A DNA stretch of 40,375 bases from an uncultured Spirochaetaceae bacterium (GCA_964437265.1 CAYTGY010000001.1:1-40375); one strand, 5' to 3'; positions 10,768 to 37,856 are shown, counted from the stretch's first letter. Program-made: numbers and translations. The notes: generated by a model not told the origin, from the sequence alone.

Positions 10768-10807
10768 TCGTCCCAACTTGTCCAAGCTTCGCTCGATTGA
10801 AACTGTC

Positions 10808-11872
10808 ATGACTGTGTGGATAGACCTTGCCAACGCACCCCACGTCCCCTTCTTCGCCCCAATCGTAGCCGAGTTGGAGAGACGCCGGCACACCTGCGTA
10901 ATCACCGCGCGGGACTTCAATCACACGGTGGAACTTGCCCGTCTTACCGGTCTTTCGGTTGTGCGTGTAGGAGCGCATGGTGGTCGAAAGGACGTTGCGA
11001 AGCTCGCGAATCTTCCTGTTCGCGTACGGCAGTTGCTGAATGCCGTCGGCGGTGACAAGCCGTCTGTCGCGGTTAGCCACAACTCGTACACTCAGACGCT
11101 CGCCGCCAGGATCAGTCGAATCCCCGTCGTCACAATAATGGACTACGAGGGACAACCAGCGAACCACATCGCGTTTCGGGCGGCGAACCGTGTCGTTGTG
11201 CCGGAAAGCTTCCCAAGAACAGATCTCCGGAGGTTTGGAGCTCGCGAGAACAAGACGGTGCGGTACCCCGGTTTCAAGGAGCAAGTGTACCTGGACTCAT
11301 TCGAGCCATCGGACGACGGGCTTCTGAGGATTCTGGAGGAGATCGATCCCCCCCACGGATGGGACCTCAATGCGGGCCTGCTCGTTACGGTTCGCACGCC
11401 AGCGACGATCGCGGCGTATCATCACTTCCACAATCCGCTGTTCGATTCGCTGCTGGAACGGCTGTCCACGATGCCTGGCGTCTTGAACGTGCTCCTCTGC
11501 CGCACCGAGGAGCAGGAACGAGCCTATCGAGGTCGCTTCTCCTCCATCCGTATCCCGGCCAACCAACTCGACGGCAAAGACCTTGTATATCACTCCGATT
11601 ACGTCTTCAGCGCGGGCGGTACGATGAACCGAGAGGCTGCAATCGTAGGTACACCGGCGTACACGCTCTTTGCCGGCAAGCTTCCAGCCATAGACGCCGA
11701 GCTGATTCGTTTGGGAAGACTTCGTCAGCTTCGCACCGTAGCAGACGTGAAACAGCTTGAACTGAGCAAGACACCGAAGCTGCCAACGCTGCGGAACCCA
11801 GGCTTGATCGCGTTTTTCGCTGATCAGATCGAGTTGCTCGCAAAACGTGGCCATCGTTCCATCACGACATGA
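10808..11872 (+). CDS. DUF354-family protein (GT-B/epimerase-like fold, function unknown), paralogue 1
   Basis: Starts MTVWIDLANAPHVPFFAPIV, nearly identical to the start of the next gene, and carries the shared C-terminal motif GGTMNREAA. I prefer ATG 10808 over TTG 10778 by analogy with the paralogue. Confidence 0.75.
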   Translation: MTVWIDLANAPHVPFFAPIVAELERRRHTCVITARDFNHTVELARLTGLSVVRVGAHGGRKDVAKLANLPVRVRQLLNAVGGDKPSVAVSHNSYTQTLAARISRIPVVTIMDYEGQPANHIAFRAANRVVVPESFPRTDLRRFGARENKTVRYPGFKEQVYLDSFEPSDDGLLRILEEIDPPHGWDLNAGLLVTVRTPATIAAYHHFHNPLFDSLLERLSTMPGVLNVLLCRTEEQERAYRGRFSSIRIPANQLDGKDLVYHSDYVFSAGGTMNREAAIVGTPAYTLFAGKLPAIDAELIRLGRLRQLRTVADVKQLELSKTPKLPTLRNPGLIAFFADQIELLAKRGHRSITT

Positions 11873-12951
11873 CCGTTTGGATTGACACTGACAATGCACC
11901 GCACGCTTTGCTGATGGCTCCGATAGTTCGAGCGTTGGAGCGCCGTGGAAATCGCGTTGTCGTCACAGCGCGCCTGCACGGGCCACTCGTGGAAATGCTT
12001 GAGGCACAAGGAATTTCTCCGGCTATCTGTGGCGCTTACCCTGGCAAGCGTCTCGTCTCGAAGGTAGTACACGTAATGCGCCGCGCCATCTGCCTCTCTC
12101 GGTTCCTGCGAAAGGAGAGACCAGCTGTTGGATTGTCCCACGGGACGCGTGCGGCGATGATCGCTGCACGACTCACGCAAACCCCTTTCGTTACGATGCT
12201 GGACTACGAGCACTCTAACATGCCGGCGAGGATCGTGAACTGGTCCGCCGCCATCCTCGTCCCGCGCGTGGCAGACCGGAGTGAGTTGGTTGGTCTCGGT
12301 TACCTGCCAGAGCTCGTTGCCACCTATGACGGGCTGAAGGAAGAGCTCTATGTATACGGCGCCGCGATTGATCAAGAGAAGCCAAGCATCTGGCAGCGTG
12401 AAGACGCGATACATGTTCTGCTTCGGCCGCCCGCTGACACCGCGCACTACTTCCGTGCGGAGTCCACTGTTGTCTTTCGGAGGATACTCGACCGGCTATC
12501 TGCCGCACGCGAAGCTGTGGAGTGCGTCGTTGTGCCGCGCAGCGCAAAACAATCGGCCGAGCTCCAATCAGTCATCTCGAGATCGGGGTCGGACTCTATT
12601 CGCGTCCTGAATCACGTCGTTGATGGGCCGACGACTATTCGGTCGGCTGACCTAGTGATTGGCGGCGGAGGTACCATGAATCGGGAGGCCGCCTGCATCG
12701 GCGTACCCGCCTTTAGCACGTATGCGGGTCGTTGGGGAGGCGTTGATCGGTACCTCGAGCAGATCGGACGACTCACCAATCTGGTTGACGACACCCAACC
12801 GTCAAAGCTCATGCTTCGCAAGCAACATCAGCTGGACCCGCTCGGATCTGTGACCAAGTCGGCAAAGCTACTCCGCGAGATCTGCGACCTCATCGAGCGT
12901 GCGGGGGTCTCCGAGGCGCAGCACAAGGTTCATTCAAGAAGGAAGATATGA
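11869..12951 (+). CDS. DUF354-family protein, paralogue 2 (tandem duplicate)
   Basis: Starts MTVWIDTDNAPHALLMAPIV and has ...GGGGTMNREAACIGVPA. It is collinear with the upstream gene at roughly 30% identity by eye. ATGA start/stop overlap. Confidence 0.75.
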   Translation: MTVWIDTDNAPHALLMAPIVRALERRGNRVVVTARLHGPLVEMLEAQGISPAICGAYPGKRLVSKVVHVMRRAICLSRFLRKERPAVGLSHGTRAAMIAARLTQTPFVTMLDYEHSNMPARIVNWSAAILVPRVADRSELVGLGYLPELVATYDGLKEELYVYGAAIDQEKPSIWQREDAIHVLLRPPADTAHYFRAESTVVFRRILDRLSAAREAVECVVVPRSAKQSAELQSVISRSGSDSIRVLNHVVDGPTTIRSADLVIGGGGTMNREAACIGVPAFSTYAGRWGGVDRYLEQIGRLTNLVDDTQPSKLMLRKQHQLDPLGSVTKSAKLLREICDLIERAGVSEAQHKVHSRRKI

Positions 12952-23242: not shown

Positions 23243-24595
23243 ATGAAGATAGCGCTTGTAAATACCCCAGCCCATCAGGTCGCAGAGGCGCACGATCTCC
23301 CGAAGTACCCCCATCTTGGGCTGTCGTACTTGGCGGGCGCCGCAATCGCTGTGGGTCACAAAGCAACGGTAATCGACGCCAAGCTGGAACGGCTCACCGT
23401 GGCCGATGTCGCCCGGCGAATCGAGACTGATGGTTATGATGCCGTTGGCATATCGGCGATGACGCACGATATCGTCACAGCGGCGAAGCTTGCGGAGGCA
23501 GTCAAGCGCGAGGACAAGAGTGTGCCGGTGATCGTAGGCGGCGTCCATGTGACAGCGCTGCCGTCGGAGACGCTCACTGAGTTTGGGGCATTCGATTACG
23601 GGGTACATGGGGAAGGTGAGAGACCCTTGTGTGAGCTCCTCGACGCACTTGACTCAGACTTCCCAGTCGACACGATCAGCAGTGTGGCATGGCGAAGCGG
23701 TGGCAACGTTCTTGTCAACAACCGCGCCGAGTACGTGATCGACATCGACTCTTTTCCGTCACCTGAGTTTGCCGACTATCCGGGTGCCGCCGAGTATCAC
23801 GTTCTCACATCTCGCGGCTGCCCGTACGACTGTGTATTCTGCATGTCACCGTACGGACGCGATCGCGTACGGTTTCACGCGATAGAACGGGTGATCGAGG
23901 ACTTGAAATCGGTCTCTACCCACGGGCCACGCTTGATCAAGTTTAACGATGAGAATCTCGCATTCAAGAAGGAACGAGCGATCGCTCTTATGAACGCGAT
24001 CGTTGAAGCCGGTCTTCACCGCATTCCAAAGGTCGCGAGTCTCCGCGTCGATCATGTTGATCGAGATCTGCTCACGGCTATGAAATCGGCTGGGTTCACC
24101 TACGTTGACTACGGAATCGAGAGCGGCGACGCCGCCGTGCTCAAAGCGACCAAGAAGCGGATCACGATGGAACAGGCCGAAGCCGCGATCCGACTGACAA
24201 AGGAAGTCGGCATCAAAGTCGGTGCGAACTACATCATCGGTCATCCCGGGGAGACGGCCAAACGGACGATCGACTGGGCTGTGAAACTCAATGCCGACGT
24301 CAATGCTTTCGGTATCATGGTTCCGTACCCCGCCACCGAGGTCGCGCGCATGGCCAAGGCCGGAGAGGGCGGGTACCGGTTGATCGCAAGCAGTTGGGAC
24401 GACTATAACAAGCAGATTGGGAACGCGTTGGAGATGGAGACGCTTTCACGAGCCCAGATGGAACGACTTCAGCTCAAAGGCTACCTCAGTGTGCTCACGA
24501 GGAATCTCCGGCTTTTTGGCCTCCTCAGCTTCGTCTGGCAGAATCGCCGGGCAGGGTTCTCATTCGTGAAGAAAGCACTCGGAATCGGCACATGA
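23243..24595 (+). CDS. B12-binding-domain radical SAM enzyme (class B rSAM)
   Basis: N-terminal cobalamin-binding-like Rossmann domain (KIALVNTP...DAVGISAMTHD...VIVGGVHVTALP) followed by the radical-SAM cluster motif SRGCPYDCVFC (CxxxCxxC). Confidence 0.85.
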   Translation: MKIALVNTPAHQVAEAHDLPKYPHLGLSYLAGAAIAVGHKATVIDAKLERLTVADVARRIETDGYDAVGISAMTHDIVTAAKLAEAVKREDKSVPVIVGGVHVTALPSETLTEFGAFDYGVHGEGERPLCELLDALDSDFPVDTISSVAWRSGGNVLVNNRAEYVIDIDSFPSPEFADYPGAAEYHVLTSRGCPYDCVFCMSPYGRDRVRFHAIERVIEDLKSVSTHGPRLIKFNDENLAFKKERAIALMNAIVEAGLHRIPKVASLRVDHVDRDLLTAMKSAGFTYVDYGIESGDAAVLKATKKRITMEQAEAAIRLTKEVGIKVGANYIIGHPGETAKRTIDWAVKLNADVNAFGIMVPYPATEVARMAKAGEGGYRLIASSWDDYNKQIGNALEMETLSRAQMERLQLKGYLSVLTRNLRLFGLLSFVWQNRRAGFSFVKKALGIGT

Positions 24596-26862: not shown

Positions 26863-28203
26863 ATGAACCACACCACCGCTGTCGTTGGAGGCGGCATGAC
26901 AGGCATCGCCGCCGCTCTGGATTTCGCCGAGCGAGGTCACAAGGTCACCCTCTTCGAGGCTCGGGACCATCTGGGGGGACTCTCGGACACGTACAGCTGG
27001 AACGGCGTGACGTGGGACAGGTTCTACCATGTGGTGCTCTCTACAGACGAGCTCTTGGTGGAGCTGATCAGGCAGCTTGGCCTGGAGAACGAACTCTACT
27101 GGCGGGAGACCAAAAGCGGCTTCTACGGCGACGGGAAGCTCGTGTCTATGTCCTCAATCGGAGATTTCATCAGGTTTCCCTTCCTCTCCCTCTGGCAGAA
27201 GTTTAGGCTGGGAGTTGGAATTCTCTCGAGTACCGGAATCAAGGATGCGGACAAGCTGGACCGGGTCTATGTGCGCGAGTGGCTCATCCGCGTCTTTGGG
27301 CGACGGGTGTATGAGAAGATCTGGGACCCACTCTTGCGGAGCAAGCTCGGGGAGGCACGGCATCAGACCTCCGCTGCCTTCATCTGGGCAACAATCAAGC
27401 GGCTCTACGGAGCCCGGAGTGGAGAGGCCAAAACGGAGAAGATGGGGCACGTCCACGGCGGCTACCGCGTGGTTCTCGCTGCTGTTGAGCGAGAGCTAGC
27501 AGCTCGCGGAGTGGACGTTCGCACCGGGGAGCCGGTTGAGACGATCATGAGCGACGGTGGGGGCCCCAGCATCAACACCGCGAGTGGCAAGGGTGAGTTC
27601 GACTCGGTCCTGCTCACGGTTCCGGTCGGCGAGATCATGCGCCTGACCGAGCCCGCACGCAGTCACCTGGACGATCGACACGAGTACTGGAGCAAGCTCT
27701 CGTCGGTGCAGTATCTAAGGGTTTGCTGTCTCATGATCGTGCTCAATCAAGGTCTTTCGCCCTACTACGTGATCAACCTCTTGGATACCAGCATGCCCTT
27801 CACCGGAATAGTCGAGGCGTCCAATGTGGCGGCGCCTGAGGATATGCGCGGCAAGCACATCGTGTACCTACCCAAGTACGTGACCGCCGACGATCCCATT
27901 CACGGTGAGTCGGACCAGGCGATCACGGGGCGCTTCATTTCAGCGCTCCGCCGAGTCTTCCCAGAATTGGATGACGCGTCGATTCTGCACACAAAGCTCT
28001 TCCGCGAGACCTATGTCCAGCCGCTACAAGAGGTGAACCGACTCGAGAACCACGTGGAGTTCGCCACGCCTATTCCCGGGGTGTATGTCGCCAACTCTGC
28101 TATGCTTTACAACACGACGTTGAACAACAACGCTGCTATCACGCTGGCCGGTGATGCGGTAGCTGCAATGACGAGCGGTGAGACGCCGGCAATCGATGGC
28201 TGA
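26863..28203 (+). CDS. FAD/NAD(P)-dependent oxidoreductase (amine-oxidase / phytoene-desaturase-like fold)
   Basis: Dinucleotide-binding motif AVVGGGMTGIAAALDFAERGHKVTLFEARDHLGG. The length and C-terminal FAD-closing segment are consistent with this fold. The substrate is unknown. Confidence 0.75.
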   Translation: MNHTTAVVGGGMTGIAAALDFAERGHKVTLFEARDHLGGLSDTYSWNGVTWDRFYHVVLSTDELLVELIRQLGLENELYWRETKSGFYGDGKLVSMSSIGDFIRFPFLSLWQKFRLGVGILSSTGIKDADKLDRVYVREWLIRVFGRRVYEKIWDPLLRSKLGEARHQTSAAFIWATIKRLYGARSGEAKTEKMGHVHGGYRVVLAAVERELAARGVDVRTGEPVETIMSDGGGPSINTASGKGEFDSVLLTVPVGEIMRLTEPARSHLDDRHEYWSKLSSVQYLRVCCLMIVLNQGLSPYYVINLLDTSMPFTGIVEASNVAAPEDMRGKHIVYLPKYVTADDPIHGESDQAITGRFISALRRVFPELDDASILHTKLFRETYVQPLQEVNRLENHVEFATPIPGVYVANSAMLYNTTLNNNAAITLAGDAVAAMTSGETPAIDG

Positions 28204-28843
28204 GCAAGATCGAATCAGTGTTCAAATCCATCCCACCGCGGAGGTCGATCCTGGTGCGGAACTCGGGCACGGCTGCCGGGTTTGGAATCAGGCGCACGTG
28301 CGTAGCGGCGTGCGGATCGGTCCCGAGTCGACGATCGGCAAGAACGTGTATGTGGACACGGATGTGACCATTGGTTCTCGGTGCAAAATTCAGAACAACG
28401 TATCGATCTACGATGGGGTGACCGTTGATGACGGTGTGTTCGTCGGTCCGCATGTCTGCTTCACCAACGACCGCGTTCCTCGGGCGATCAACCCGGACGG
28501 CTCGCTGAAGCGACCGGGCGATTGGCAGATAAGCCGGACGCTGGTGCGCTATGGCGCATCCATTGGGGCGCACTCGGTAGTTCTGCCGGGACTCACGGTG
28601 GGAGCGTTCGCACTGGTCGCCGCCGGCAGTGTGGTCACGCGGGACGTCCCCGATCATGGATTGGTGATGGGCTCGCCGGCGCGGCTGGTCGGCTACGTCT
28701 GTTTCTGCGGCGCTCGGCTGCCAGGGTCGGGACCTCGCGACTGCCGTGCAGCCGGAGCAACCTCCGTCACCTGTGCGTCGTGCGGCCGCGTGGTCCGCCT
28801 TCGAGCGTCAATAGGTTCGCAAGTGGGAGATGCGCGTGGTTGA
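28196..28843 (+). CDS. wbpD: UDP-2-acetamido-3-amino-2,3-dideoxy-glucuronate N-acetyltransferase-like LbH enzyme (WbpD/WlbB type)
   Basis: IHPTAEVDPGAELGHGCRVWNQAHVRSGVRIG...KIQNNVSIYDGVTVDDGVFVGPHVCFTND..PRA...TLVRYGASIGAHSVVLPGLTVGAFALVAAGSVVTRDVPDHGLVMGSPARLVG aligns along its length with the WlbB/WbpD pattern. ATG 28196 gives an 8-nt overlap with the upstream gene. Confidence 0.75.
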   Translation: MAEQDRISVQIHPTAEVDPGAELGHGCRVWNQAHVRSGVRIGPESTIGKNVYVDTDVTIGSRCKIQNNVSIYDGVTVDDGVFVGPHVCFTNDRVPRAINPDGSLKRPGDWQISRTLVRYGASIGAHSVVLPGLTVGAFALVAAGSVVTRDVPDHGLVMGSPARLVGYVCFCGARLPGSGPRDCRAAGATSVTCASCGRVVRLRASIGSQVGDARG

Positions 28844-29975
28844 AACGCAGATCCCTTTTGTCGATCTGAAGACGCAATACGCGTCGTACCAGGCGGAGTT
28901 GGACGACGCCATTATGCGTGTCGTGAAATCATGCCGGTTCATTCAGGGCGGCGAAGTGGAAGCTCTGGAGCAAGAACTTGCCGCGTTCTCCGGCGCGGCG
29001 CATTGTGTTAGTTGCGCGAGCGGCACTGACGCGCTGTTGCTGGCACTGATGGCGTTGGATATTGGTCCGGGAGATGAAGTCATCACGACTCCGTTCAGCT
29101 TCTTTGCCACCGCGGAGGCGATCTCTCTGGTTGGCGCCACTCCTGTCTTTGTGGATATCCAACCGGAGACATACAACATCGATCCCACCAAGATCGAGTC
29201 CGCAATAACCCACCATACCCGCGGGGTCCTTCCTGTGGGGATCTTCGGTCAGCCGGCTGACATGGATGCGATCAATCAGATCGCCGTTTCGCACGCTATT
29301 GCCGTGATTGAGGATGCAGCCCAGAGTTTCGGTGCTCGATACCACCACCGGCGCAGCGGAACACTCGCGCAAGTGGGTTGCACGAGCTTCTTCCCTGCAA
29401 AGCCCCTTGGGTGCTTTGGCGACGGAGGGGCCGTGTTCACGGAAGATGATGAGCTGGGCAACCGGATTCGGCAGTTGATGAATCACGGACAGACCGCGCG
29501 TTACGAGCATGGACGGATTGGTCTGAACGCGCGGCTAGACGCAATCCAAGCCGCAGTGCTGCGCGTGAAGCTGAGGCACTATGCCGATGAACTCGTGGCG
29601 CGCGAGCGAATAGCCCAGCGCTACACCCAGGCACTCCGTACGGTTGCGGGCATACGGACACCCACCATAGCGCCTGGTATGAGTAGTTCCTTCGCCCAAT
29701 ACACCATCGTGGTCCAAGATCGCGATCAGCTTGTCGCCGCATTGACGTCAGACGGCGTGCCGACGGCCATTCACTATCCGGCACCGCTGTATTCCCAGCC
29801 AGTGTACCGTTTGGGAAGGCGGCCATCCCGGACGGTACCCGCCGCCGGATGCGAGGTTGCCGAATCCGTTTGCGGGCGGGTTATGAGTATTCCATTTGGT
29901 CCGTTCTTGGCGACGGATCATCAGGACCGAATCATCGATGCAGTGCTTCGGTTTCTCGAGGAGCGTCCACAATGA
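28836..29975 (+). CDS. wbpE: DegT/DnrJ/EryC1/StrS-family PLP aminotransferase (WbpE/WlbC-like)
   Basis: IPFVDLKTQY...GGEVEALEQELAAF...CASGTDALLLAL...VITTPFSFFATAEAI...IEDAAQSFGA...SFFPAKPLGCFGDGG, which contains the Schiff-base Lys. I prefer GTG 28836 because GGGAG lies 6 nt upstream, whereas ATG 28830 abuts the SD. Confidence 0.85.
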   Translation: MVETQIPFVDLKTQYASYQAELDDAIMRVVKSCRFIQGGEVEALEQELAAFSGAAHCVSCASGTDALLLALMALDIGPGDEVITTPFSFFATAEAISLVGATPVFVDIQPETYNIDPTKIESAITHHTRGVLPVGIFGQPADMDAINQIAVSHAIAVIEDAAQSFGARYHHRRSGTLAQVGCTSFFPAKPLGCFGDGGAVFTEDDELGNRIRQLMNHGQTARYEHGRIGLNARLDAIQAAVLRVKLRHYADELVARERIAQRYTQALRTVAGIRTPTIAPGMSSSFAQYTIVVQDRDQLVAALTSDGVPTAIHYPAPLYSQPVYRLGRRPSRTVPAAGCEVAESVCGRVMSIPFGPFLATDHQDRIIDAVLRFLEERPQ

Positions 29976-30901
29976 GAGTCGGAGTGATCGGGCTAGGGTC
30001 CATGGGGCAGAATCACTACCGTGTCCTCAACTCTATCCCGTTCATTGAGGCGGTCGTGGTTGCGGATCCCAGAGAAGACGTGCTGCCGGAAGAACATGCG
30101 TACACATCGACATCGCGCATGCTTGAGACGGAGAAACTGGATGCGGTCATTGTTGCGGTGCCCACTACCGCTCACCTGGATGTGGCCGTAAGCGTCCTCG
30201 AGCGAGGTATCCCGATGCTTCTTGAGAAGCCGGTTGCTTCCACGCTAGAAGAGGCGAATGTGATTCGGCAACGGGTGGAAACCTCGCGGATTCCCGTTGC
30301 CGTGGGGCATGTGGAGCGTTTCAATCCTGTGGTCCGGAGCCTGATGAGTGAACTTGCAGGCAAAAGGATCTATAGCATTACCATTACCCGAATCGGTCCG
30401 TTTCCTCCTCGGATTGCAGACGTCGGAGTCTTGGTTGATCTCTCCGTACACGACATAGATCTGGTACACTGGTTGACCAGACACGTTCCGGTAGCCGAGG
30501 CGCGAATCTTCAAGTCGGTGAAAGGCGCAGGCTCTCATGAGGACAACGCAGTTGTCACACTTCGGCTTGAGAATGACGTGGTAGCCTCCATAGTCACGAA
30601 CTGGTTGACGCCGTTCAAGCGCCGGACAATAGAGGTGGCCACCGATCAGGCATTCTACCAGGCCGATCTCATGTCTCAAGAACTCACCGAGTACTCAGCA
30701 TACCAGGATAACAACTCCTACTTGGTACGTAACTGCACGGTTACCAAGGGTGAGCCGTTGCGGAAGGAACTGGAAGCGTTTCTGCGGTTTGTACAAACCG
30801 GCGAGCGTGACGGTTTGGCGGACGTGGAGGAGGGACTCGTCCCGCTTCGCATTATCAGCCGTGCCCGGGGGGTATCTGCGGTGAGCTGTTCGGCACCTTG
30901 A
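29972..30901 (+). CDS. wbpB: Gfo/Idh/MocA-family NAD-dependent oxidoreductase (WbpB/WlbA-like)
   Basis: MRVGVIGLGSMGQNHYRVL...EKPVASTLEEA...VGHVERFNP. ATG 29972 has GAGGAG 8 nt upstream and an ATGA overlap with the aminotransferase. The ORF-track start at 29849 lies inside the upstream gene. Confidence 0.8.
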   Translation: MRVGVIGLGSMGQNHYRVLNSIPFIEAVVVADPREDVLPEEHAYTSTSRMLETEKLDAVIVAVPTTAHLDVAVSVLERGIPMLLEKPVASTLEEANVIRQRVETSRIPVAVGHVERFNPVVRSLMSELAGKRIYSITITRIGPFPPRIADVGVLVDLSVHDIDLVHWLTRHVPVAEARIFKSVKGAGSHEDNAVVTLRLENDVVASIVTNWLTPFKRRTIEVATDQAFYQADLMSQELTEYSAYQDNNSYLVRNCTVTKGEPLRKELEAFLRFVQTGERDGLADVEEGLVPLRIISRARGVSAVSCSAP

Positions 30902-30917: not shown

Positions 30918-31328
30918 ATGAACCAAGCATCAAACGAACCGGTTAGGGTTGATCATTACTTAGCGTTAGGTACTTCGATACTGCTAAACACTGCTGCATT
31001 GTTGCTTATTCGTCTGGTTGTGGCGCAGATCAGGAAGAGTCATGACCAGCTGGATGCACTGCTGATCTTGGGAGCACTCCAGTCGCCGGTGTTTTGGGCC
31101 GGGGTGGCTAGCTTTGTGGGTGGTATCTACTTCTGGATGGTATCTCTGCGCGCGCTTGATCTGAGCCTGGCCTATCCAACGTCGGCACTCTCTTACGTGG
31201 CGATAGCGGTTCTCTCCCGCCTCTGGTTCGGCGAGGAACTATCCGTCTGGCGGGTCGTCGGCATCACCGCCATTGTCTTGGGCGTGGCCGCACTGTACTG
31301 GCATCCAAAGCAAAGCGGGTCGGCATGA
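30918..31328 (+). CDS. Small DMT/SMR-like membrane protein (ArnE/ArnF-like flippase subunit)
   Basis: 136 aa with 4 predicted TM helices. C-terminal pattern LSLAYPTSALSYVAIAVLSRLWFGEELSVWRVVGITAIVLGV. Confidence 0.65.
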   Translation: MNQASNEPVRVDHYLALGTSILLNTAALLLIRLVVAQIRKSHDQLDALLILGALQSPVFWAGVASFVGGIYFWMVSLRALDLSLAYPTSALSYVAIAVLSRLWFGEELSVWRVVGITAIVLGVAALYWHPKQSGSA

Positions 31329-31696
31329 TCTATTACGCGGCGCTTTTCGCCAGTGTGATCCTAAACGCCGTGAGTCTTGTCCTCCTCAAGCGATACGCTC
31401 ACCTATCGGCTCCTCTTCCTGCCGAGTCCGGTGAATCGAGTGGAGTTTGGGCCATGGTGGTGCGTCTCGTATCGAGTCCGGCGATCATCACCAGCGTCGT
31501 CTGCTACGGATTCGCCGCGGTTTTCTGGATGATCGCCCTCTTCCGCGTGGACCTCACTGTGGCATATCCAACAGTAGGTCTCACCTATGTATTCGTAGCC
31601 CTTGTGGCCCCAAAGCTCTTCAGTGAAGAGATGGGCGCCTATCGCTGGGTTGGAATCTCTCTTATAGTCGGCGGAGTAGTCATAATGCACGTCTGA
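31325..31696 (+). CDS. Small DMT/SMR-like membrane protein (second ArnE/ArnF-like subunit)
   Basis: 123 aa with 4 TM helices. LTVAYPTVGLTYVFVALVAPKLFSEEMGAYRWVGISLIVGGV is paralogous to the previous gene. ATGA overlap. Confidence 0.65.
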   Translation: MIYYAALFASVILNAVSLVLLKRYAHLSAPLPAESGESSGVWAMVVRLVSSPAIITSVVCYGFAAVFWMIALFRVDLTVAYPTVGLTYVFVALVAPKLFSEEMGAYRWVGISLIVGGVVIMHV

Positions 31697-31707: not shown

Positions 31708-32043
31708 ATGGACAACACAGGTCAGTCAATGCAAGAAAGCCACGTGACAACGGATCCGGAAGATGCAAACCTTACAGCCAAGGTGGCCGAGATCATTTGC
31801 ACATTCGTGGTGGACACGTTTCTCTTTGGAGAGGAAGATGGATTACTCTCTCCCGACGGTTCGTTCTTGGAGACCGGGATTATCGACTCAACCGGCATGC
31901 TCGAACTCGTTAGCTTCATTGAGGTGCGATTCGGGATCGCTGTGGAAGACGAGGAGATGCTTCCGTCAAACCTAGACTCGCTGAATCGGGTGAGCGCCTA
32001 CGTGGTCAGAAAGCTCCATTCGGAGCCCCAAGGCTCCGCGTAG
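31708..32043 (+). CDS. Acyl/aminoacyl carrier protein (DltC-like flavour)
   Basis: About 80-aa four-helix core with the phosphopantetheine site ...ETGIIDSTGMLELVSFIE... (Ser in the DS motif). It resembles the D-alanyl-carrier pattern GLLDSMGTV.LL. The start is ATG 31708 or ATG 31729. Confidence 0.8.
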   Translation: MDNTGQSMQESHVTTDPEDANLTAKVAEIICTFVVDTFLFGEEDGLLSPDGSFLETGIIDSTGMLELVSFIEVRFGIAVEDEEMLPSNLDSLNRVSAYVVRKLHSEPQGSA

Positions 32044-32052
32044 CCATAATCC

Positions 32053-34038
32053 ATGTGTGGGATTTGTGGGGCAATAGACTCGCGGAGATCAGTACCGGTC
32101 GATGAGGCCACCGTAGACTCCATGCTTGCTGCACTCGGTTCTCGAGGGCCGGACGCGTACGGGGTGTTCTACGACACCGGTGTCTTCCTGGGCCACACGC
32201 GACTGAGCATCATAGACCCAGAAGGTGGAGCTCAGCCGCTATCCCTTGACGGTGGCCGCTACTGGATTGTGTTCAATGGTGAGATCTACAACTATGTCGA
32301 GCTCAAGCGCGAGCTGGTTGGGCTGGGCTACTCGTTTCGAACAGAGAGCGACACGGAAGTCCTGCTCGCAGCCCTCGTTCACTGGCAGACGGCGTATGTT
32401 GAGCACCTGAACGGTCAGTGGGCGTTTGCCGCATGGGACCGGGCAAAGCGTGAGCTTACCCTTGGACGAGATCCGCACGGGATCCGGCCGCTCTACTACA
32501 CGTACGCCGCGGGCGTGTTCCGTTTTGCTTCTACCATCCGAACGCTGTTCTGTGACTACCGTGTCCCGCGGAGCTTGGATAGTGCCGGGGTTGCTGAGCA
32601 TCTGACGTTCTGGGGACCTGTCAATGCGTCGACCGCATTTGAGGGGGTCTACCAACTACCCCCGGGAAGCACTGCGACCATACCCCTCAACGGGTCCGTT
32701 GCCATCCGCCCCGAATGGGCCCCATCATTTCCTGCTGCCGGCGATCCGCCTCGGATAGATGAGCACGAGGCCACCTACTGGCTGGAGGCGCGGCTCGTTG
32801 ATTCCGTTCGGCTGAGGTTCGAGCGCAGTGATGTTCCGGTGGGTGTGTACCTCTCCGGAGGCTTGGACTCCTCTACTATCGCGATTATTCTGTCCGCTCT
32901 TGGGAAGCGCTTTACGGCGTACTCGTTGGGTTTCACAACCAACGAGTATGACGAGAGCGACTATCAAGATGAGCTCGCTCAGGCGCTGGGGATTACCGTT
33001 GACCGTGTCATGGTTTCGCCATCTGACGTTGGCGAAGCGTTTGCTGAATCGGTTCTTCTAGCCGAGCAACCACTGGTCCGCACCGCACCTGCGCCGCTTC
33101 TGCTGCTAGCTCAGCGGGTTCGAGAATCCGGATTGCGTGCAGTCTTGACCGGAGAAGGCGCCGATGAGTTGTTTGGTGGGTATGATCTCTTCCGGGAGCA
33201 CCTACTTCGGTCAGGTGCTGCTGGGATTTCCACTGAAGGCGCAGATGCCGCGAGGTCCCTGTACAGTTGGCAGCAGCGCTCGCCCATGCGGGGCTCCGGT
33301 CTATCTCAGTGGTTTCTCTCCTCGCACGAGCATCGCTCGTCGAGTTTTGGCTCTCACATCGGGCGCTGGAGAACGGGCGCGTCCATCGCCCGCTTTCTTG
33401 AGCCCCACCTGCAGCCCCCGGGGATGGAACAGCTTAAGCGGAAGCTCCTCGCAACACTTCCGGAGGCGTATCACCACTGGGGACCGCTAGAGCAGGCTCA
33501 GTACCTAGAGCTGGCACTTCGACTGCCCGGCTACATCCTCTCCGCCCAGTCGGACCGGCAGATGATGGGGCGCTCAGTTGAGGGGCGATTCCCGTTCTTG
33601 GACCCCACCGTGGCCGCCTTCGCCTTGTCGCTACCATCGGACCTCAAGATTCGCGGCATGACCGAGAAGCACCTGCTCAAGCGTGTTTTCGGGCCACAGC
33701 TTCCACCTCGGATTGCCGCCCGGTCCAAGCAACCGTACCGCGCGCCGGATGCGCCGGCCTTTCTGGCGGCCGGTCGCCTAGGCTGGTTTGAGGAGCTACT
33801 GCACGCAGATGCGCTGCGGGTGTCCGGCGTGCTTCGTCCCGCAATGGTTGGGCGCCTAATCGCGAAGGCCCGCGCATGCAACGGAGAAAGCATGAGCATG
33901 GCTGACAACATGCGAGTAGTGGCGGTCGCCTCTATCGCGCTATTGCAGCACCACTTTGTGGATTCATTCGAGCGGCCCTCCGCGTCTCCAACTCGCCCAC
34001 GAGTACTTAGGATGACGGCAGCGTATGATGGTTCATGA
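32053..34038 (+). CDS. asnB: Asparagine synthetase (glutamine-hydrolysing) family amidotransferase with intact Ntn Cys
   Basis: MCGICGAI... (Cys2), HTRLSIID, NGEIYNY, the PP-loop VGVYLSGGLDSSTIA, and ...LTGEGADELFGGY. Confidence 0.9.
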   Translation: MCGICGAIDSRRSVPVDEATVDSMLAALGSRGPDAYGVFYDTGVFLGHTRLSIIDPEGGAQPLSLDGGRYWIVFNGEIYNYVELKRELVGLGYSFRTESDTEVLLAALVHWQTAYVEHLNGQWAFAAWDRAKRELTLGRDPHGIRPLYYTYAAGVFRFASTIRTLFCDYRVPRSLDSAGVAEHLTFWGPVNASTAFEGVYQLPPGSTATIPLNGSVAIRPEWAPSFPAAGDPPRIDEHEATYWLEARLVDSVRLRFERSDVPVGVYLSGGLDSSTIAIILSALGKRFTAYSLGFTTNEYDESDYQDELAQALGITVDRVMVSPSDVGEAFAESVLLAEQPLVRTAPAPLLLLAQRVRESGLRAVLTGEGADELFGGYDLFREHLLRSGAAGISTEGADAARSLYSWQQRSPMRGSGLSQWFLSSHEHRSSSFGSHIGRWRTGASIARFLEPHLQPPGMEQLKRKLLATLPEAYHHWGPLEQAQYLELALRLPGYILSAQSDRQMMGRSVEGRFPFLDPTVAAFALSLPSDLKIRGMTEKHLLKRVFGPQLPPRIAARSKQPYRAPDAPAFLAAGRLGWFEELLHADALRVSGVLRPAMVGRLIAKARACNGESMSMADNMRVVAVASIALLQHHFVDSFERPSASPTRPRVLRMTAAYDGS

Positions 34039-35584
34039 CCTGCTCTTGATCGCGGCACAGTACGCCCCCGACAGACGTCTACTCTTGCACGAAGACGGAT
34101 GGCTGACGTACGGGATGCTCACGCAACGGGCTCAGGCGTTGGCGGGGTTTCTTGTGGGACAGGTAGGACTGAAGCGCGGTGATCGCATCCTCATTCTCCA
34201 GCGAAACAGCGCAGAGGCTCTGGTGTCGTTATTCGGATGTCTCATCGCCGGAGGAATCGCCGTTCCGGGCAGCGTAGCTGCCAAACCGCCTGAACTCCGT
34301 CACTACGCTCGTGATGCCGAGCCCGGCGTTGTCATTGGGGAATCGGCTCTCCTTGCAGCCTACAGACGGGCAACGGACGGCCAGTGGGGCGGCTGGCTGA
34401 TACCCACCGATTCTTCCCGAGCTGTCAATGAACCGCTTCCCGGCCCCGATCTGGCTCGGACCGTGCCGTTGGATGTTGCGTTGCATCATAGTGCTGTTGT
34501 ATCGCCCGTCGGCATCGACATCGATCCCGCAGTAGTCATGTACACTTCGGGGAGCACTGCAAAGCCGAAGGGCGTTGTCTTGACGCATCTTAACTTGGTG
34601 AGCAATGCGCGGTCGGTAGTGGAGTACCTACAGTTGGAGTCGTCCGATCGAGTGATGCTGGTTCTGCCGCTGCACTACATCTATGGTCTGTCGGTTCTTC
34701 TTACCCATGTTATGGTAGGTGGTTCTGTAGTGGTCGACAACCGCATCATGTATCCGAACCTGGTGTTGCAGTCGATGGCGGCAGCAGAGGTGACGGGACT
34801 CTCTGGTGTTCCGTCCACGTTTGCACTGCTCTTGGGTCGCTCCACGGTTCGGGATATGCAGTTTCCTGCTCTCCGCTATGTTACACAGGCCGGGGGGCAC
34901 ATGCCGGTAGCTCAACAGAGAGCGGTAGCAACGACCTTCTCCCCGGCACGACTTTTCGTAATGTACGGGGCCACTGAAGCCGGGCCGCGACTGACCTATA
35001 TGCCTCCTGAGGATCTTGACGGGAGATGGGGCTCTATTGGCAAGCCGGTGCCAAATGTGGAAGTTCTTGTGGCGGACCAAGACGGGCGACGGTTGCCGCA
35101 GGGAGAGCATGGCGAACTCGTGGCTCGCGGAAGCAACATCATGTTCGGTTACTGGCAAGATCGCCAGGCAACTAGACGCGTACTGAGAGGAGGGCTCTAC
35201 TTCACCGGCGATTTGGGCTACGCCGACGCGGAAGGGTATCTGTATATCACCGGGCGGACGAGCGATATGATCAAGATAAAGGGGTTCCGCGTGAGTGCCG
35301 GGGAGATCGAGGAGGCTTTGTGTCACGAACCTGAGGTAGCCGAGGCGGCAGTCGTCGGTGTCCCGGACAAGCGAACGGGCGAAGCTGCCGTCGCATTTGT
35401 AGTCGCTGCGGACGGCCGGTGTGTTGATACGGCCGCCCTGCTTCGACGCCTGTCGGAATCTCTTTCCGCCCACAAGATTCCGTCACGCGTTGTGTTGCTG
35501 AATGCGTTACCACTGGGGTCATCGGGAAAGGTTGACCGCAGGCAGCTCCGTTCCCACGTTGCTCAGGATCAATCTACGGCATGA
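34025..35584 (+). CDS. AMP-forming adenylating enzyme (acyl-CoA ligase / carrier-protein ligase superfamily)
   Basis: Core motifs MYTSGSTAKPKGVVLTH, YGATEAG, YFTGDLGYADAEGYLYITGRTSDMIKIKGFRV and SSGKVDRRQL (the A10 Lys). Confidence 0.9.
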   Translation: MMVHDLLLIAAQYAPDRRLLLHEDGWLTYGMLTQRAQALAGFLVGQVGLKRGDRILILQRNSAEALVSLFGCLIAGGIAVPGSVAAKPPELRHYARDAEPGVVIGESALLAAYRRATDGQWGGWLIPTDSSRAVNEPLPGPDLARTVPLDVALHHSAVVSPVGIDIDPAVVMYTSGSTAKPKGVVLTHLNLVSNARSVVEYLQLESSDRVMLVLPLHYIYGLSVLLTHVMVGGSVVVDNRIMYPNLVLQSMAAAEVTGLSGVPSTFALLLGRSTVRDMQFPALRYVTQAGGHMPVAQQRAVATTFSPARLFVMYGATEAGPRLTYMPPEDLDGRWGSIGKPVPNVEVLVADQDGRRLPQGEHGELVARGSNIMFGYWQDRQATRRVLRGGLYFTGDLGYADAEGYLYITGRTSDMIKIKGFRVSAGEIEEALCHEPEVAEAAVVGVPDKRTGEAAVAFVVAADGRCVDTAALLRRLSESLSAHKIPSRVVLLNALPLGSSGKVDRRQLRSHVAQDQSTA

Positions 35585-36558
35585 GCATATTGGATCAACT
35601 CTCGATCGACTGCAAGAACGAAGTCGACCGGATCGCGATCGCCCTTCGGACTACCCTCCGTACGTCTCACCGGCAAGGTGCGGTTCTGGGGATTTCCGGT
35701 GGAGTGGACAGCAGCGTTTGTCTTGCGCTTGCCGCCCGGGCGGTTGGTCCCGCCCGGGTGTTGGGGTTGATCATGCCGGACCGCGAGTCCGCTTTTCATT
35801 CGGCAGTCTTGGCACAGACCGTTGCTGCGGGCTTCGGCGTGAGGACAGACACCATCGATATCACGGAAACACTGTGCTCGCTTGGTGCATACTCAGCTCG
35901 AGACGCCGCCATACGATCCGCGTTTCCCGACTATGCGGACGGCTGGGCCGCTAAGGTCGTGATGCCGTCGCTCGAACGCGGTCCGCGGATGAGCTACTTC
36001 GAGCTTGTCGTCTCCGACGGTCGCGGTCGTGCAAGGCAGAAGCGCCTCTCTGCGGAGCAGTACCTCGCGATCCTGGCGGCGACAAACTACAAGCAGCGTG
36101 TTCGAAAGATGATCGAGTACTACCACGCGGACCGTCTCAACTACGGCGTGATTGGTACTCCCAATCGCCTCGAGTTCGACCTGGGCTTTTTTGTCAAGCA
36201 AGGTGACGGTGTGGCTGACATCAAGCCGATCGCGCACCTGTACAAGACTCAGGTTTATCAACTTGCCGAGTACCTTGGTGTTCCACAGGAAGTCCGATCT
36301 CGGCAGCCGACTACGGACACGTATTCCATGCCGCAGTCCCAGGAGGAGTTCTTCTTCTCGCTCCCCTATTCACAGATGGATGCTTGCCTGTTCGCAAAGG
36401 ATCATGGCATGACAGCGGCGGAGGTAGCAAAGAGTATCCAACTGGAACCTACGCATATCGATCGGGTGTTTGCCGACATCGACCAGAAGCGACGTGCTAC
36501 CAAGCATCTCCATGCTACCGCGGTCGTCATAGACCAATGTAGAGGGGCATCGGTATGA
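35581..36558 (+). CDS. NAD-synthetase-family (NadE-like) PP-loop ATP-pyrophosphatase paralogue
   Basis: PP-loop VLGISGGVDSSV, then ...TNYKQRVRKM..., ...IGTPNRLEFDLGFFVKQGDGVADIKPIAHLYKTQVYQLAEYLGVP. The NAD_synthase pattern is present over the full length. ATGA overlap with the ligase. Confidence 0.8.
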   Translation: MSILDQLSIDCKNEVDRIAIALRTTLRTSHRQGAVLGISGGVDSSVCLALAARAVGPARVLGLIMPDRESAFHSAVLAQTVAAGFGVRTDTIDITETLCSLGAYSARDAAIRSAFPDYADGWAAKVVMPSLERGPRMSYFELVVSDGRGRARQKRLSAEQYLAILAATNYKQRVRKMIEYYHADRLNYGVIGTPNRLEFDLGFFVKQGDGVADIKPIAHLYKTQVYQLAEYLGVPQEVRSRQPTTDTYSMPQSQEEFFFSLPYSQMDACLFAKDHGMTAAEVAKSIQLEPTHIDRVFADIDQKRRATKHLHATAVVIDQCRGASV

Positions 36559-37049
36559 CACAACACGTGGATCCCGATCAAACGGCAATCCAGGACGTTC
36601 TTCAGGCGGTGCTTTTTCGCGCGACAGAATGCGCCATCAACTCTTCCAGCGATGTCCTGGGCATTGGGACCGACATCGTGGAGATTTCTCGTATTTGGCA
36701 AGATAAGGTCAAGTGGGGCGACCGATTCCTGACACGGGTTTTCACGCAGCGGGAGATCACCTACTGCAATGGAAAACACTCGCCGGCGCACCACTTCGCC
36801 GGAAAGCTGGCGATCAAGGAGGCCACCTACAAGGCGTTGCGACTACGCTGGAAGAGTGCATTCTCGTGGACATGGATTGAAGTCCTCAACGACGACTGGG
36901 GAGTTCCGGTGGTACGTTTTCGAGGTGATCTTGAGACCCTTGCACGCAGCAAACGAGGCCAGGCCTTGAACGTGAGCGTCTCTCACGCGGGCGACTTTGC
37001 AGTTGCAGTGGCGGTTTTGGCCCTTGACGGTCGCGAACACCGAACCTAA
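36555..37049 (+). CDS. acpS: Holo-[acyl-carrier-protein] synthase (AcpS-type 4'-phosphopantetheinyl transferase) with an N-terminal extension of about 30 aa
   Basis: GIGTDIVEISRI...FLTRVFTQREITYC...FAGKLAIKEATYKAL...WIEVLNDDWGVPVV...VSVSHAGDFAVAVAVL. GAGGGG lies 7 nt upstream, with an ATGA overlap. Confidence 0.85.
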   Translation: MTQHVDPDQTAIQDVLQAVLFRATECAINSSSDVLGIGTDIVEISRIWQDKVKWGDRFLTRVFTQREITYCNGKHSPAHHFAGKLAIKEATYKALRLRWKSAFSWTWIEVLNDDWGVPVVRFRGDLETLARSKRGQALNVSVSHAGDFAVAVAVLALDGREHRT

Positions 37050-37082: not shown

Positions 37083-37856
37083 ATGAAACGTACAGCAAGA
37101 TCTTCGCGCATCCTTGCCCTGCTGATTGCGCTGACCATGGTTGTGGTCGCACAGGTTCTGGTTGCACAGACGGGCGAGCTGGAGCCGCGCACAAACACGG
37201 TCTACGTGGGAGGCAATCTTGGTATTGAGCCGGGAACCGCGCTCGGTGTGGCCGCGGGTACCGGCATGACCGTCGCTGGGGTCTTGGACATCGGCTTCAA
37301 CTACGGACTGCGCCGTCCCCAGGGCGATGCTCCGGAGGAGCAAACGGCAATCGGCCTAACGTATGCGGTGACTGCGCTAAAACAGGGCACCGCGTTCCCG
37401 CTCTCCGCCCAGGTGTACGGCGACTACTCGTTTCGAACCGCGAGTTCTCAGGTGCTCAGCGACGCTCGGCTCCAGAAGGAGGGGTTCGGGTACTCACTCG
37501 GCATCCTCCTGGCTCGTGACTTCAGGCTCTTCGGGCCCGTGGAGCTCCGAGTTGCCGGGTTAGCGGAGTGGCGGCTCAGTCGCTACGTGACCAAACTCAC
37601 CTTCACCTACGTTCCGCCGGACGCTGATGCGCCGGAAGACCCGGACGCAGCCGAACCGCCGGTTGACTACACCGAGTACCCGCTCACCACCCGAGTGACC
37701 CGGCTGCAGTCTGGTGGGTATGCCGGGCTAAGCGTTGCGATTGGTCAGGGCGCGGGGGTTTCTGCGGGCTGTGCACTACTATGGGACACCGACCTGAATC
37801 TTCTGGTCCGGCCGGAGCTGGAAGTGGCCGTCCACGGGCGAACGGAGCGGCAGTGA
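37083..37856 (+). CDS. Putative outer-membrane beta-barrel protein (signal peptide plus alternating-hydrophobicity strands)
   Basis: Signal peptide MKRTARSSRILALLIALTMVVVAQVLVAQ. Many Gly/Tyr-rich amphipathic strands are present (VYVGGNLGI, GLTYAVTAL, AQVYGDYSF, GYSLGILLA, GGYAGLSVAI). It sits directly before the Wzz/Wza export genes. I do not recognise the family. Confidence 0.55.
   Translation: MKRTARSSRILALLIALTMVVVAQVLVAQTGELEPRTNTVYVGGNLGIEPGTALGVAAGTGMTVAGVLDIGFNYGLRRPQGDAPEEQTAIGLTYAVTALKQGTAFPLSAQVYGDYSFRTASSQVLSDARLQKEGFGYSLGILLARDFRLFGPVELRVAGLAEWRLSRYVTKLTFTYVPPDADAPEDPDAAEPPVDYTEYPLTTRVTRLQSGGYAGLSVAIGQGAGVSAGCALLWDTDLNLLVRPELEVAVHGRTERQ

Follow-up and report, generated by a model that had tools for sequence, protein, structure and literature searches.

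The locus studied here raises the question of why a small carrier protein, an adenylating ligase, two enzymes resembling asparagine and NAD synthetases and a phosphopantetheinyl transferase should be encoded side by side within a polysaccharide cluster. The window, i.e. the whole stretch of DNA that was analysed, comprises 40,375 nucleotides of an uncultured Spirochaetaceae bacterium (GCA_964437265.1 CAYTGY010000001.1:1-40375) and is occupied by a single long polysaccharide cluster on the + strand. Near its 3' end, at positions 31708-37049 and all on the + strand, lie five open reading frames (ORFs) that encode, in this order, a type-II carrier protein (ACP), a glutamine-dependent amidotransferase of the AsnB family, an adenylating ligase of the ANL superfamily, a NadE-fold PP-loop ATP-pyrophosphatase of the PRK00876 type (referred to below as the NadE-like protein) and an AcpS-type 4'-phosphopantetheinyl transferase (PPTase). 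With a probability of roughly 60%, in our estimation, these five genes constitute one expression unit for the synthesis, on a carrier dedicated to it, of an amidated acyl group that the surrounding polysaccharide pathway would use.

The genes of the cassette are very tightly packed. The ACP gene (31708-32043, +), whose 111-aa product carries Ser61 in GIIDSTGMLELV and a second family motif, PSNLDS, ends in a TAG that is separated by a 9-nt gap from the ATG of the AsnB gene (32053-34038, +), which encodes a protein of 661 aa starting with MCGICG and bearing Cys2 and an SGGLDSS PP-loop. The AsnB gene overlaps by 14 nt the ligase gene (34025-35584, +; 519 aa), and ATGA overlaps of 4 nt each join the ligase gene to the NadE-like gene (35581-36558, +; 325 aa, PP-loop SGGVDSS) and the latter to the AcpS gene (36555-37049, +; 164 aa, with an N-terminal extension of ca. 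33 aa). All of these junctions were read from the DNA. The metagenome gene caller places the start of AsnB 23 codons further downstream; the MCGI start at 32053 is preferred because the later one would delete the catalytic Cys2. The presence of the five genes, the families to which they belong and their close packing, which had been proposed in an earlier note made from the sequence of this DNA, are thus borne out by the ORFs, the profile scores and the junctions.

The conservation of the cassette was analysed from three starting points. A scan of one genome per species rendered 34 true members of the NadE-like family (43-55% identity) as well as 46 control loci with a canonical NadE, and the window proteins were mapped onto the six-frame ORFs of 38 NadE-like loci, partners being considered up to a distance of 10 kb. 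A ligase was found in 32 of the 38 loci, an ACP in 29 and an AsnB in 27, whereas none of the 46 canonical-NadE loci had a homologue of the ACP, the AsnB or the ligase within 10 kb, which indicates a linkage far beyond chance. The order of the genes varies (AsnB-ACP-ligase-NadE, NadE-AsnB-ACP-ligase and ligase-NadE-AsnB-ACP, among others), and such shuffling is the signature of a functional, not a historical, linkage. The cassette occurs in at least 12 phyla, namely Pseudomonadota, Actinomycetota, Spirochaetota, Planctomycetota, Fibrobacterota, Verrucomicrobiota, Nitrospirota, Acidobacteriota, Myxococcota, Ignavibacteriota, Chloroflexota and Bacteroidota. A search of metagenomes with a carrier-motif pattern gave at least 600 matches, 589 of the 600 matches listed encoding relatives of the carrier; 80 loci, on contigs of mostly 1-4 kb, were kept, and at least one partner was present in 72 of them. 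When the 23 of these ACP-first loci that reach at least 6 kb are considered, the ligase was found in 17, AsnB in 15 and the NadE-like gene in 15. Finally, a search starting from the ligase identified the three closest relatives of the window cassette (L175, L176 and L177), in which AsnB-ligase-NadE-AcpS appear in the window order; the ACP gene is present in L175 and L177, and the L176 contig starts within AsnB. An apparent 706-aa ligase-NadE fusion (P0207, L175 8001-10121) was discarded as a frameshift artefact, its last ca. 90 residues being out of frame and the contig being rich in split genes.

The adjacency of the five genes, on which the earlier note made its proposal depend, can therefore be described at two levels: a four-gene core that is kept in at least 12 phyla, and a form with AcpS that is kept in the sub-lineage of the window. 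The same results do not sustain the claim that the architecture is a distinct one, since ACP-AsnB-ligase-NadE is a widespread cassette, a copy of which was published in 2009 for Sinorhizobium meliloti. In a plasmid of Nitratireductor rhodophyticola (L089, 1292-4667), a stand-alone operon with the order GNAT-like-AsnB-ACP-ligase-NadE adjoins Tn7-like transposition genes (Mu transposase C-terminal, TniB and TniQ), which suggests horizontal movement of the cassette.

The NadE-like protein is the most conserved member of the cassette, and its gene is the tightest partner of the ACP and ligase genes, also in those loci in which AsnB is missing. It scores 169 bits against NAD_synthase, 449 bits against NF002048 (cutoff 313) and 149 bits against TIGR00552 (cutoff 63.65), and it stays below the cutoffs of the NadE equivalogs NF010587 (173 bits, cutoff 255) and NF001979 (102 bits, cutoff 250). 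Its predicted structure (AF2 model, pLDDT 84.8) has PDB 2e18 as best match, with 26% identity and a TM of 0.82 normalised to the target, and contains an extra three-stranded sheet at about residues 121-155; a fold search with this model returned NadE structures only, giving no lead on the inserted sheet. At least 8000 database clusters were matched, of which the best 120 show 52-60% identity and come from many phyla, and family identity across the at least 12 phyla with the cassette is 43-56%. In the records examined, plasmid records included, the PRK00876-type family is annotated as NAD synthase.

A search of plasmid records at the protein level gave 116 that carry the NadE-like gene, including 76 Sinorhizobium pSymB replicons and plasmids of Mesorhizobium, Azospirillum, Shinella and Nitratireductor. 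The only essential genes of pSymB are engA and a tRNA-Arg gene; once both had been moved to the chromosome and a toxin-antitoxin locus of pSymB had been deleted, the replicon was dispensable, and minimal medium supports the growth of the strain that lacks it (PMC4207669). The location on plasmids, the dispensability of pSymB and the different neighbourhood of canonical NadE genes together argue for a non-housekeeping role of the family. At the family level, the NadE-like protein would be the NH3-dependent amidotransferase of the cassette and no housekeeping NAD synthetase. The alternative raised in the earlier note, that this is a housekeeping NAD synthetase gene that merely sits here, thus fails for the family, the window covering 40 kb of this metagenome-assembled genome.

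The second amidotransferase of the cassette matches Asn_synthase (249 bits), GATase_7 (144 bits) and TIGR01536 (428 bits, cutoff 267), and is below the cutoff of the E. coli-type equivalog model (256 bits, cutoff 499). Its score against TIGR03108 is 323.8 bits (cutoff 816.9), the alignment being confined to the N-terminal 384 residues, and its identity to other cassette AsnBs ranges from 33 to 46% (29 loci). The window encodes another AsnB-like protein (6903-8723, +; 606 aa) that starts with MPGLAG, lacks the Cys2 glutaminase nucleophile and has TIGR03108 as its best match, with merely 112 bits; a similarly degenerate AsnB-like gene is located beside the cassette in L021 (3624-5492).

With regard to the carrier, its score against the Pfam PP-binding model (20.1 bits) falls just below the cutoff of 20.8, but its identity is unambiguous in an alignment of 15 orthologues, in which Ser61 of GIIDSTG is invariant and eight columns in total do not vary (D60, S61, G63, E66, D81, N88, S91 and K102). 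Its S. meliloti orthologue is SMb20651 (44% identity). The best PDB matches are type-II peptidyl carrier proteins (PCPs; 2my5, PigG), and the best named NCBIfam match is the ornithine-lipid ACP NF052616, at 44 bits for the window protein and 57 bits for that of S. meliloti with a cutoff of 130. Across phyla the carrier, with its two motifs, shows a degree of conservation that is unusually high and consistent with docking to several enzymes.

The AcpS protein passes the models for its family (PF01648, ACPS, 55.7 bits with a cutoff of 25; TIGR00516, 79 bits with a cutoff of 59.8). Its gene directly follows the NadE-like gene in L175, L176 and L177, so that the proposal that AcpS is a part of the unit holds for the nearest relatives. 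Elsewhere it is rare, being found near the cassette in three of the 37 other NadE-like loci (L014, L021 and L022) and in none of the 80 ACP-first loci. These numbers are still beyond chance, since about 0.25 loci in 38 would be expected and none of the 46 controls had it. The N-terminal extension and a KHxPxxHFAG motif are common to the window AcpS and the copies of L176 and L177, and the closest database homologues (43-46% identity) sit in housekeeping-type contexts. A specialised AcpS subfamily was considered and rejected, as pairwise identities (34-43%) do not split cassette-linked copies from those in housekeeping contexts. AcpS is an add-on fixed in the window's own sub-lineage. A private PPTase, implied earlier to serve the carrier in place of the housekeeping enzyme, is not generally required: most cassettes lack AcpS, and the AcpS of S. 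meliloti primes the orthologous carrier (PMC7232532).

The ligase, which would be the carrier-loading enzyme, matches AMP-binding with 253 bits and AMP-binding_C with 66 bits, and all of its core motifs are present (YTSGSTAKPKG, YGATE, TGD, GRTSDMIKIKG and SSGK), including the A10 Lys. Its best PDB match is an A domain of a nonribosomal peptide synthetase (NRPS), and its best specific model is TIGR03098, with 376.6 bits for a cutoff of 592.35; it is 49-52% identical to the ligases of L175-L177 and 34% identical to the S. meliloti ligase, SMb20650. An alignment of 31 cassette ligases separated two types at motif A4. Type B, to which the window ligase belongs (HYIYG), has the pattern (H/Y)Yx(Y/F)G without Asp, whereas type A, represented by S. 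meliloti, has AFDYG and thus an Asp, a split which suggests that different lineages load different acids. In a HMMER alignment to the A domain of LgrA, Ile219 of the window ligase aligns with the alpha-amino-binding Asp of FSFD, and an alpha-amino acid is therefore unlikely to be its substrate. An Arg located four residues past the TE of motif A5, Arg322 in the window protein, is invariant in the 31 ligases, and the motif MYGxTE...R...PP(E/D) is common to the window ligase and SMb20650. We take the site of Arg322 to be an acyl-pocket or specificity-code position, by homology with residues 330/331 of the A-domain code and with pocket residues of 4CL. A conserved Arg in the pocket suggests a second anionic group on the ligase substrate, which is what a tethered intermediate needs in order to be a substrate for carboxylate-adenylating amidotransferases. 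Judging from these residues, the substrate is probably a non-amino acid with a second anionic group.

From these data a route can be proposed in which AcpS would add phosphopantetheine to Ser61 of the carrier, and the ligase would adenylate a carboxylic acid and join it to the carrier as a thioester. The AsnB-type enzyme, with nitrogen from glutamine, and the NadE-type enzyme, with nitrogen from ammonia, would then each turn a free carboxyl or carbonyl into an amide by way of adenylation, the target being the tethered group or else its acceptor molecule. An acyltransferase, for which the adjacent LbH protein is the best candidate, would move the group to the amino sugar that the oxidoreductase and aminotransferase encoded nearby would produce, and the product would enter the exported polymer. 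The catalytic signatures are intact in the window proteins (Cys2 and SGGLDSS in AsnB, SGGVDSS in the NadE-like protein, the core motifs of the ligase and Ser61 of the carrier). The idea that ligase and carrier act as a thio-templated donor finds support in the S. meliloti orthologues. According to PMC7232532, smb20650 and the ACP gene smb20651 are cotranscribed on pSymB, holo-SMb20651 was obtained with S. meliloti AcpS, and acylated SMb20651 appears in E. coli upon co-expression of SMb20650.

The surroundings of the cassette bear on the last steps of this route. Glycan genes were found in 21 of the 38 NadE-like loci, LbH genes near the cassette in seven and DegT genes in five. In the window, a sugar-tailoring block (26896-30901, +), which has the same order upstream of the cassette in L175, is made up of genes for a flavin amine-oxidase-like protein (26896-28203, +; 428 bits against the NCBIfam 'hypothetical protein' equivalog NF005560, cutoff 252), an LbH acyltransferase (28196-28843, +), a DegT aminotransferase (28836-29975, +) and a GFO/IDH/MocA oxidoreductase (29972-30901, +). 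The LbH protein matches the NeuD/PglB sugar acetyltransferase model with 102 bits, LpxD with 70 and LpxA with 61. The most economical reading of the LbH-DegT-oxidoreductase block found upstream in the window and in L175 is the N-acylation of a newly made amino sugar, and the block would be the maker and N-acylator of an amino sugar that possibly receives the carrier-borne group. The amine-oxidase-like gene overlaps the start of the LbH gene; in L175 the gene calls merge both into a single product of 639 aa, possibly owing to a frameshift.

Between this block and the cassette are located genes for two small membrane proteins, ArnF-like (30918-31328, +) and ArnE-like (31325-31696, +), which are a candidate flippase pair for a lipid-linked sugar and which we regard as context and not as core. 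The stop of the ArnE-like gene is 11 nt upstream of the ACP start. The pair, to which the earlier note had drawn attention as a possible membrane component, keeps its position in L175, where LbH-DegT-GFO/IDH/MocA-epimerase-ArnF-ArnE precede the cassette, and was found in none of the other 37 NadE-like loci. Downstream of AcpS, two genes are kept with the cassette in L175 and L176 (37083-39157, +): a 257-aa ORF (37083-37856, +) without family match and with a signal-peptide-like N-terminus, immediately 3' of AcpS, and a gene for a chain-length-determinant-like protein.

Other accessory genes adjoin the cassette in loci of other organisms. Methyltransferases of the HemK/PrmC family with an NPPY motif (TIGR00536, 158 bits, above cutoff) were found next to it in L002 (13009-13746), L005 (13164-14099), L090 (12127-12852), L127, L155 and L158, where they make up a subgroup of close similarity (IDMCCGSGNLA...VCNPPYIS). 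Characterised members of this family methylate the side-chain amide nitrogen of glutamine, and the presence of such enzymes beside the cassette hints at a primary carboxamide product, an amide of which they may N-methylate. An SGNH-like family of ca. 285 aa (FGHQSVG ... DGGHLN), without a Pfam or NCBIfam model, adjoins the cassette ligase in 11 loci of different phyla, among them L005 (14096-15256), L014 (2606-3463), L021 (16264-17106), L119, L122, L127, L156, L158 and L163, and might act as a transferase or an esterase on the group that the carrier bears. In alpha-proteobacteria a GNAT-like gene adjoins the cassette. LbH, SGNH-like and GNAT-like proteins are the candidate transferases, with differences from lineage to lineage. 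The window contains no homologue of the SGNH-like, GNAT-like or HemK-like genes.

Taken beyond the window, these observations lead us to a more tentative proposal, which we put forward as possible but on balance doubtful: the PRK00876-type 'NAD(+) synthase' family would have no NAD synthetase role and would instead mark a so far unrecognised pathway of amidation on a carrier, present in at least 12 phyla, the acyl product of which would be installed on polysaccharides or lipids. The carrier would present an acid, loaded by the ligase and bearing a second anionic group, to both PP-loop enzymes, the glutamine-dependent and the ammonia-dependent one, giving a new acyl group with an amide, diamide, amidine or nitrile, and in some lineages a HemK-type N-methylation would precede installation.

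Several points weigh against amidation on a carrier. The main counter-evidence comes from a 2009 study by Ramos-Vega et al., in which the S. meliloti carrier was reportedly acylated with C12:0 or C18:0 in E. coli; this speaks for fatty acids, in which an amidotransferase would find no spare carboxylate. The placement of Arg322 in the pocket comes from homology alone. The NadE-like protein keeps most of the NadE core motifs and passes TIGR00552, so that a true NAD synthetase activity is possible. Some loci consist of ACP-ligase-NadE without AsnB, and others of ACP-ligase without either amidotransferase, and both amidotransferases therefore need not act on one intermediate. Finally, no transferase is universally linked to the cassette, LbH, GNAT-like and SGNH-like genes each being found in some loci only.

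The C12:0/C18:0 acylation also supports a different explanation, according to which the cassette would belong to a lipid pathway: the ligase would be a long-chain acyl-ACP synthetase, the cassette would supply fatty-acyl groups to a lipid or to a glycan with a lipid anchor (e.g. an N-acylated amino sugar or an amino-lipid-like product) and the amidotransferases would modify the head group. We consider this unlikely, though to be kept in mind. The acylation of SMb20651 upon co-expression of SMb20650 (PMC7232532) fits it, but acylation in E. coli may be promiscuity, and SMb20650 is unable to take the place of FadD in either S. meliloti or E. coli (PMC7232532). The best named match of the carrier is the ornithine-lipid ACP, but at scores far under the cutoff; the neighbouring LbH protein matches LpxD and LpxA, which use acyl-ACP, but scores higher on the sugar acetyltransferase model. 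The GNAT-like gene beside the cassette in alpha-proteobacteria would also suit a lipid product, whereas the invariant Arg322 would be unexpected with an aliphatic chain. The ornithine-lipid pathway of OlsH/OlsI was specifically rejected, because the ACP model is far under its cutoff and that pathway uses a GH3-like enzyme, and ligase and ACP do not belong to a characterised lipid A or fatty-acid pathway either, a possibility that the earlier note had left for checking, the nearest named models (XrtA ligase, OlsH/I ACP) being far under their cutoffs. Closer to what that note proposed is an independent tailoring of the sugar, in which AsnB would produce a uronamide in the manner of WbpS, the NadE-like protein another amide or an amidine, and ligase and ACP would supply an acyl group separately, the genes being together merely because they decorate the same polymer. 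AsnB-type (WbpS) and PP-loop (WbpG/PseA) enzymes are indeed known makers of glycan uronamide and acetamidino groups, the UDP-GlcNAc dehydrogenase, oxidoreductase, aminotransferase, LbH and 2-epimerase homologues of the window fit a pathway to a 2,3-diamino-uronic acid, and more than half of the NadE-like loci have glycan genes. The idea is weakened, to the point of being improbable, by the recurrence of the same four genes, shuffled but together, in loci without sugar-nucleotide genes (S. meliloti pSymB, the Nitratireductor plasmid and the Planctomycetota locus L004) and as stand-alone operons on Mesorhizobium plasmids as well. It is also at odds with the NadE-like gene being the tightest partner of ACP and ligase even without AsnB, and the second AsnB-like gene of the window (6903-8723) could serve the polymer.

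A Dlt-like aminoacylation, in which the ligase would charge the carrier with an amino acid destined for a polymer of the cell surface, had been suggested by the resemblance to DltA/DltC, which likewise consist of a free-standing adenylating enzyme and a small carrier with a DS(T/M)G motif serving a cell-envelope polymer. The likeness of the carrier to type-II PCPs and to DltC, the NRPS A domain as best PDB match of the ligase, the FDYG of type A ligases, including SMb20650, whose Asp aligns with the alpha-amino-binding Asp of A domains, and the score of SMb20650 against TIGR01733 (289 bits, nearly reaching the cutoff of 317) would all agree with it. For the window ligase, however, the analogy fails, since this is a type B enzyme with Ile in place of that Asp; the DltC models give the window ACP 17.5 bits (NF003464, cutoff 68) and 16.7 bits (TIGR01688, cutoff 52.35), the two amidotransferases have no Dlt counterpart, and a Pfam scan of the + strand genes of the window found no MBOAT/DltB or DltD. 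Candidates for DltB and DltD beside the ligase-AcpS sub-operons of L014 and L021 were also discarded, the 491-aa ORF being an unknown protein and the 527-aa ORF a Wzx-type flippase. We thus hold aminoacylation to be very improbable for this locus. Even less credit can be given to a coincidence of housekeeping genes, i.e. a true asparagine synthetase, NAD synthetase and holo-ACP synthase with genes that happen to lie beside that of an acyl-CoA ligase. This is how PGAP names them, TIGR01536, NF002048 and TIGR00516 are all passed, and the closest AcpS homologues are in housekeeping-type contexts. Such a coincidence is hard to reconcile with partner genes in 27-32 of the 38 NadE-like loci and in none of the 46 controls, with the 116 plasmid records, with the growth on minimal medium of a strain cured of pSymB (PMC4207669), and with the scores of the AsnB and NadE-like proteins below the E. 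coli-type AsnB and the NadE equivalogs. The synthesis of an amidated acyl group on the carrier is retained as the preferred explanation of the cassette.

The remainder of the window encodes glycosyltransferases, Wzy- and Wzx-like proteins, a UDP-GlcNAc dehydrogenase, two 2-epimerases and a chain-length determinant, together with the oxidoreductase, aminotransferase and LbH set, an OafA-SGNH protein and a B12/radical-SAM enzyme. The B12-binding radical-SAM enzyme (23243-24595, +) is encoded directly 5' of the OafA-SGNH gene and is probably of the methyltransferase type; its best NCBIfam matches, of 135-154 bits, are all far under cutoff. Two DUF354 paralogues in tandem (364 and 360 aa; 10778-12951, +) are followed by a UDP-GlcNAc 2-epimerase homologue. 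At the 5' end of the window (86-1237, +), a C-terminal piece of an XrtA-type polysaccharide deacetylase (DUF3473) is apparently fused to an ArnC-like GT2. The ArnC-like GT2, the DegT protein and the ArnE/F-like pair give the cluster an Arn-like flavour, and perhaps correspond to a side branch with an undecaprenyl-phosphate amino sugar.

Among known systems, the closest specific curated models for the window ligase and AsnB belong to the XrtA/PEP-CTERM set, which consists of TIGR03098, a pyridoxal phosphate (PLP) decarboxylase (TIGR03099), an ACP and TIGR03108. The kinship perceived in the earlier note is real in the sense that TIGR03098 and TIGR03108 are the nearest specific models, also for the S. 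meliloti proteins, and that in the XrtA set and in the window alike a ligase, an ACP and an AsnB-type amidotransferase occur in an exopolysaccharide locus, the window having in addition weak matches to an XrtA-type deacetylase and to a chain-length determinant. The window ligase and AsnB are, however, no members of these equivalogs, their scores being well under the cutoffs (592 and 817), and a NadE-like enzyme is not part of the XrtA set. As the note had also stated, the PLP decarboxylase is missing: no domain of such a decarboxylase or of an exosortase was detected by the Pfam scan among the 34 + strand genes of the 40 kb covered. With NadE itself (PDB 2e18, 1nsy) the NadE-like protein shares the fold, the SGGxDSS PP-loop and the core motifs GFFxKxGDG and PxxxLxK; it differs in an identity of only 20-26%, in the extra three-stranded sheet, in the linkage to ACP, ligase and AsnB and in belonging to a plasmid-borne family. 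Parts of the proposed route have precedents elsewhere. The tetronate genes of Vibrio cholerae O1, RfbK/RfbL, provide a dedicated ACP and a ligase in an O-antigen cluster, LpxA and LpxD are LbH transferases that accept acyl-ACP, and OxyD (malonamyl starter unit) is an AsnB homologue that amidates a thioester-bound dicarboxylate. To our knowledge none of these systems has a NadE-fold enzyme, and a literature search on PRK00876, on the four enzymes in connection with polysaccharide or O-antigen and on nadE1 of Sinorhizobium gave nothing of use.

The closest known system is the operon of S. meliloti, the composition of which was reportedly given by Ramos-Vega et al. in 2009 as asnB-smb20651-smb20650-nadE1. 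On pSymB of strain 1021 the order is AsnB (645 aa), ACP (88 aa, Q92TY4), ligase (515 aa, CAC49758) and NadE (334 aa). The same four families are present in the window, with identities of 44% for ACP, 38% for AsnB, 34% for the ligase and 52% for the NadE-like protein, and with the same best NCBIfam matches (for TIGR03098, 377 bits in the window and 458 bits for SMb20650). All of the features that define the SMb20651-type operon family at the sequence level are present in the window cassette, which therefore belongs to this family. The four-gene core is thus already known from S. meliloti, and it is very widespread, chemically unsolved and systematically mis-named. It is also very common, with at least 8000 NadE-like clusters and at least 600 ACP motif matches, and occurs in model rhizobia too. 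The function of SMb20651 is still to be investigated (PMC5686131), and 17 years after its characterisation the S. meliloti carrier is still without a product. Solving this chemistry would correct a large annotation error and would probably reveal a new glycan or lipid substituent. The window cassette differs from the S. meliloti operon in several respects. It begins with ACP-AsnB instead of AsnB-ACP, it adds an AcpS gene that overlaps the NadE-like gene, its ligase is of type B (HYIYG) and not of type A (AFDYG), and, whereas the S. meliloti copy is a stand-alone operon near minCDE, it lies in a 40-kb polysaccharide cluster behind the ArnE/F-like pair. In comparison with S. meliloti, the window holds a variant that combines an integrated AcpS with a type B ligase and that follows an amino-sugar block and an ArnE/F-like pair, within a glycan cluster competent for export. 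With its own PPTase and its position behind an amino-sugar block and a flippase-like pair, the cassette of the window and of L175-L177 leads to a concrete hypothesis on the acceptor, which the stand-alone rhizobial operon never offered.

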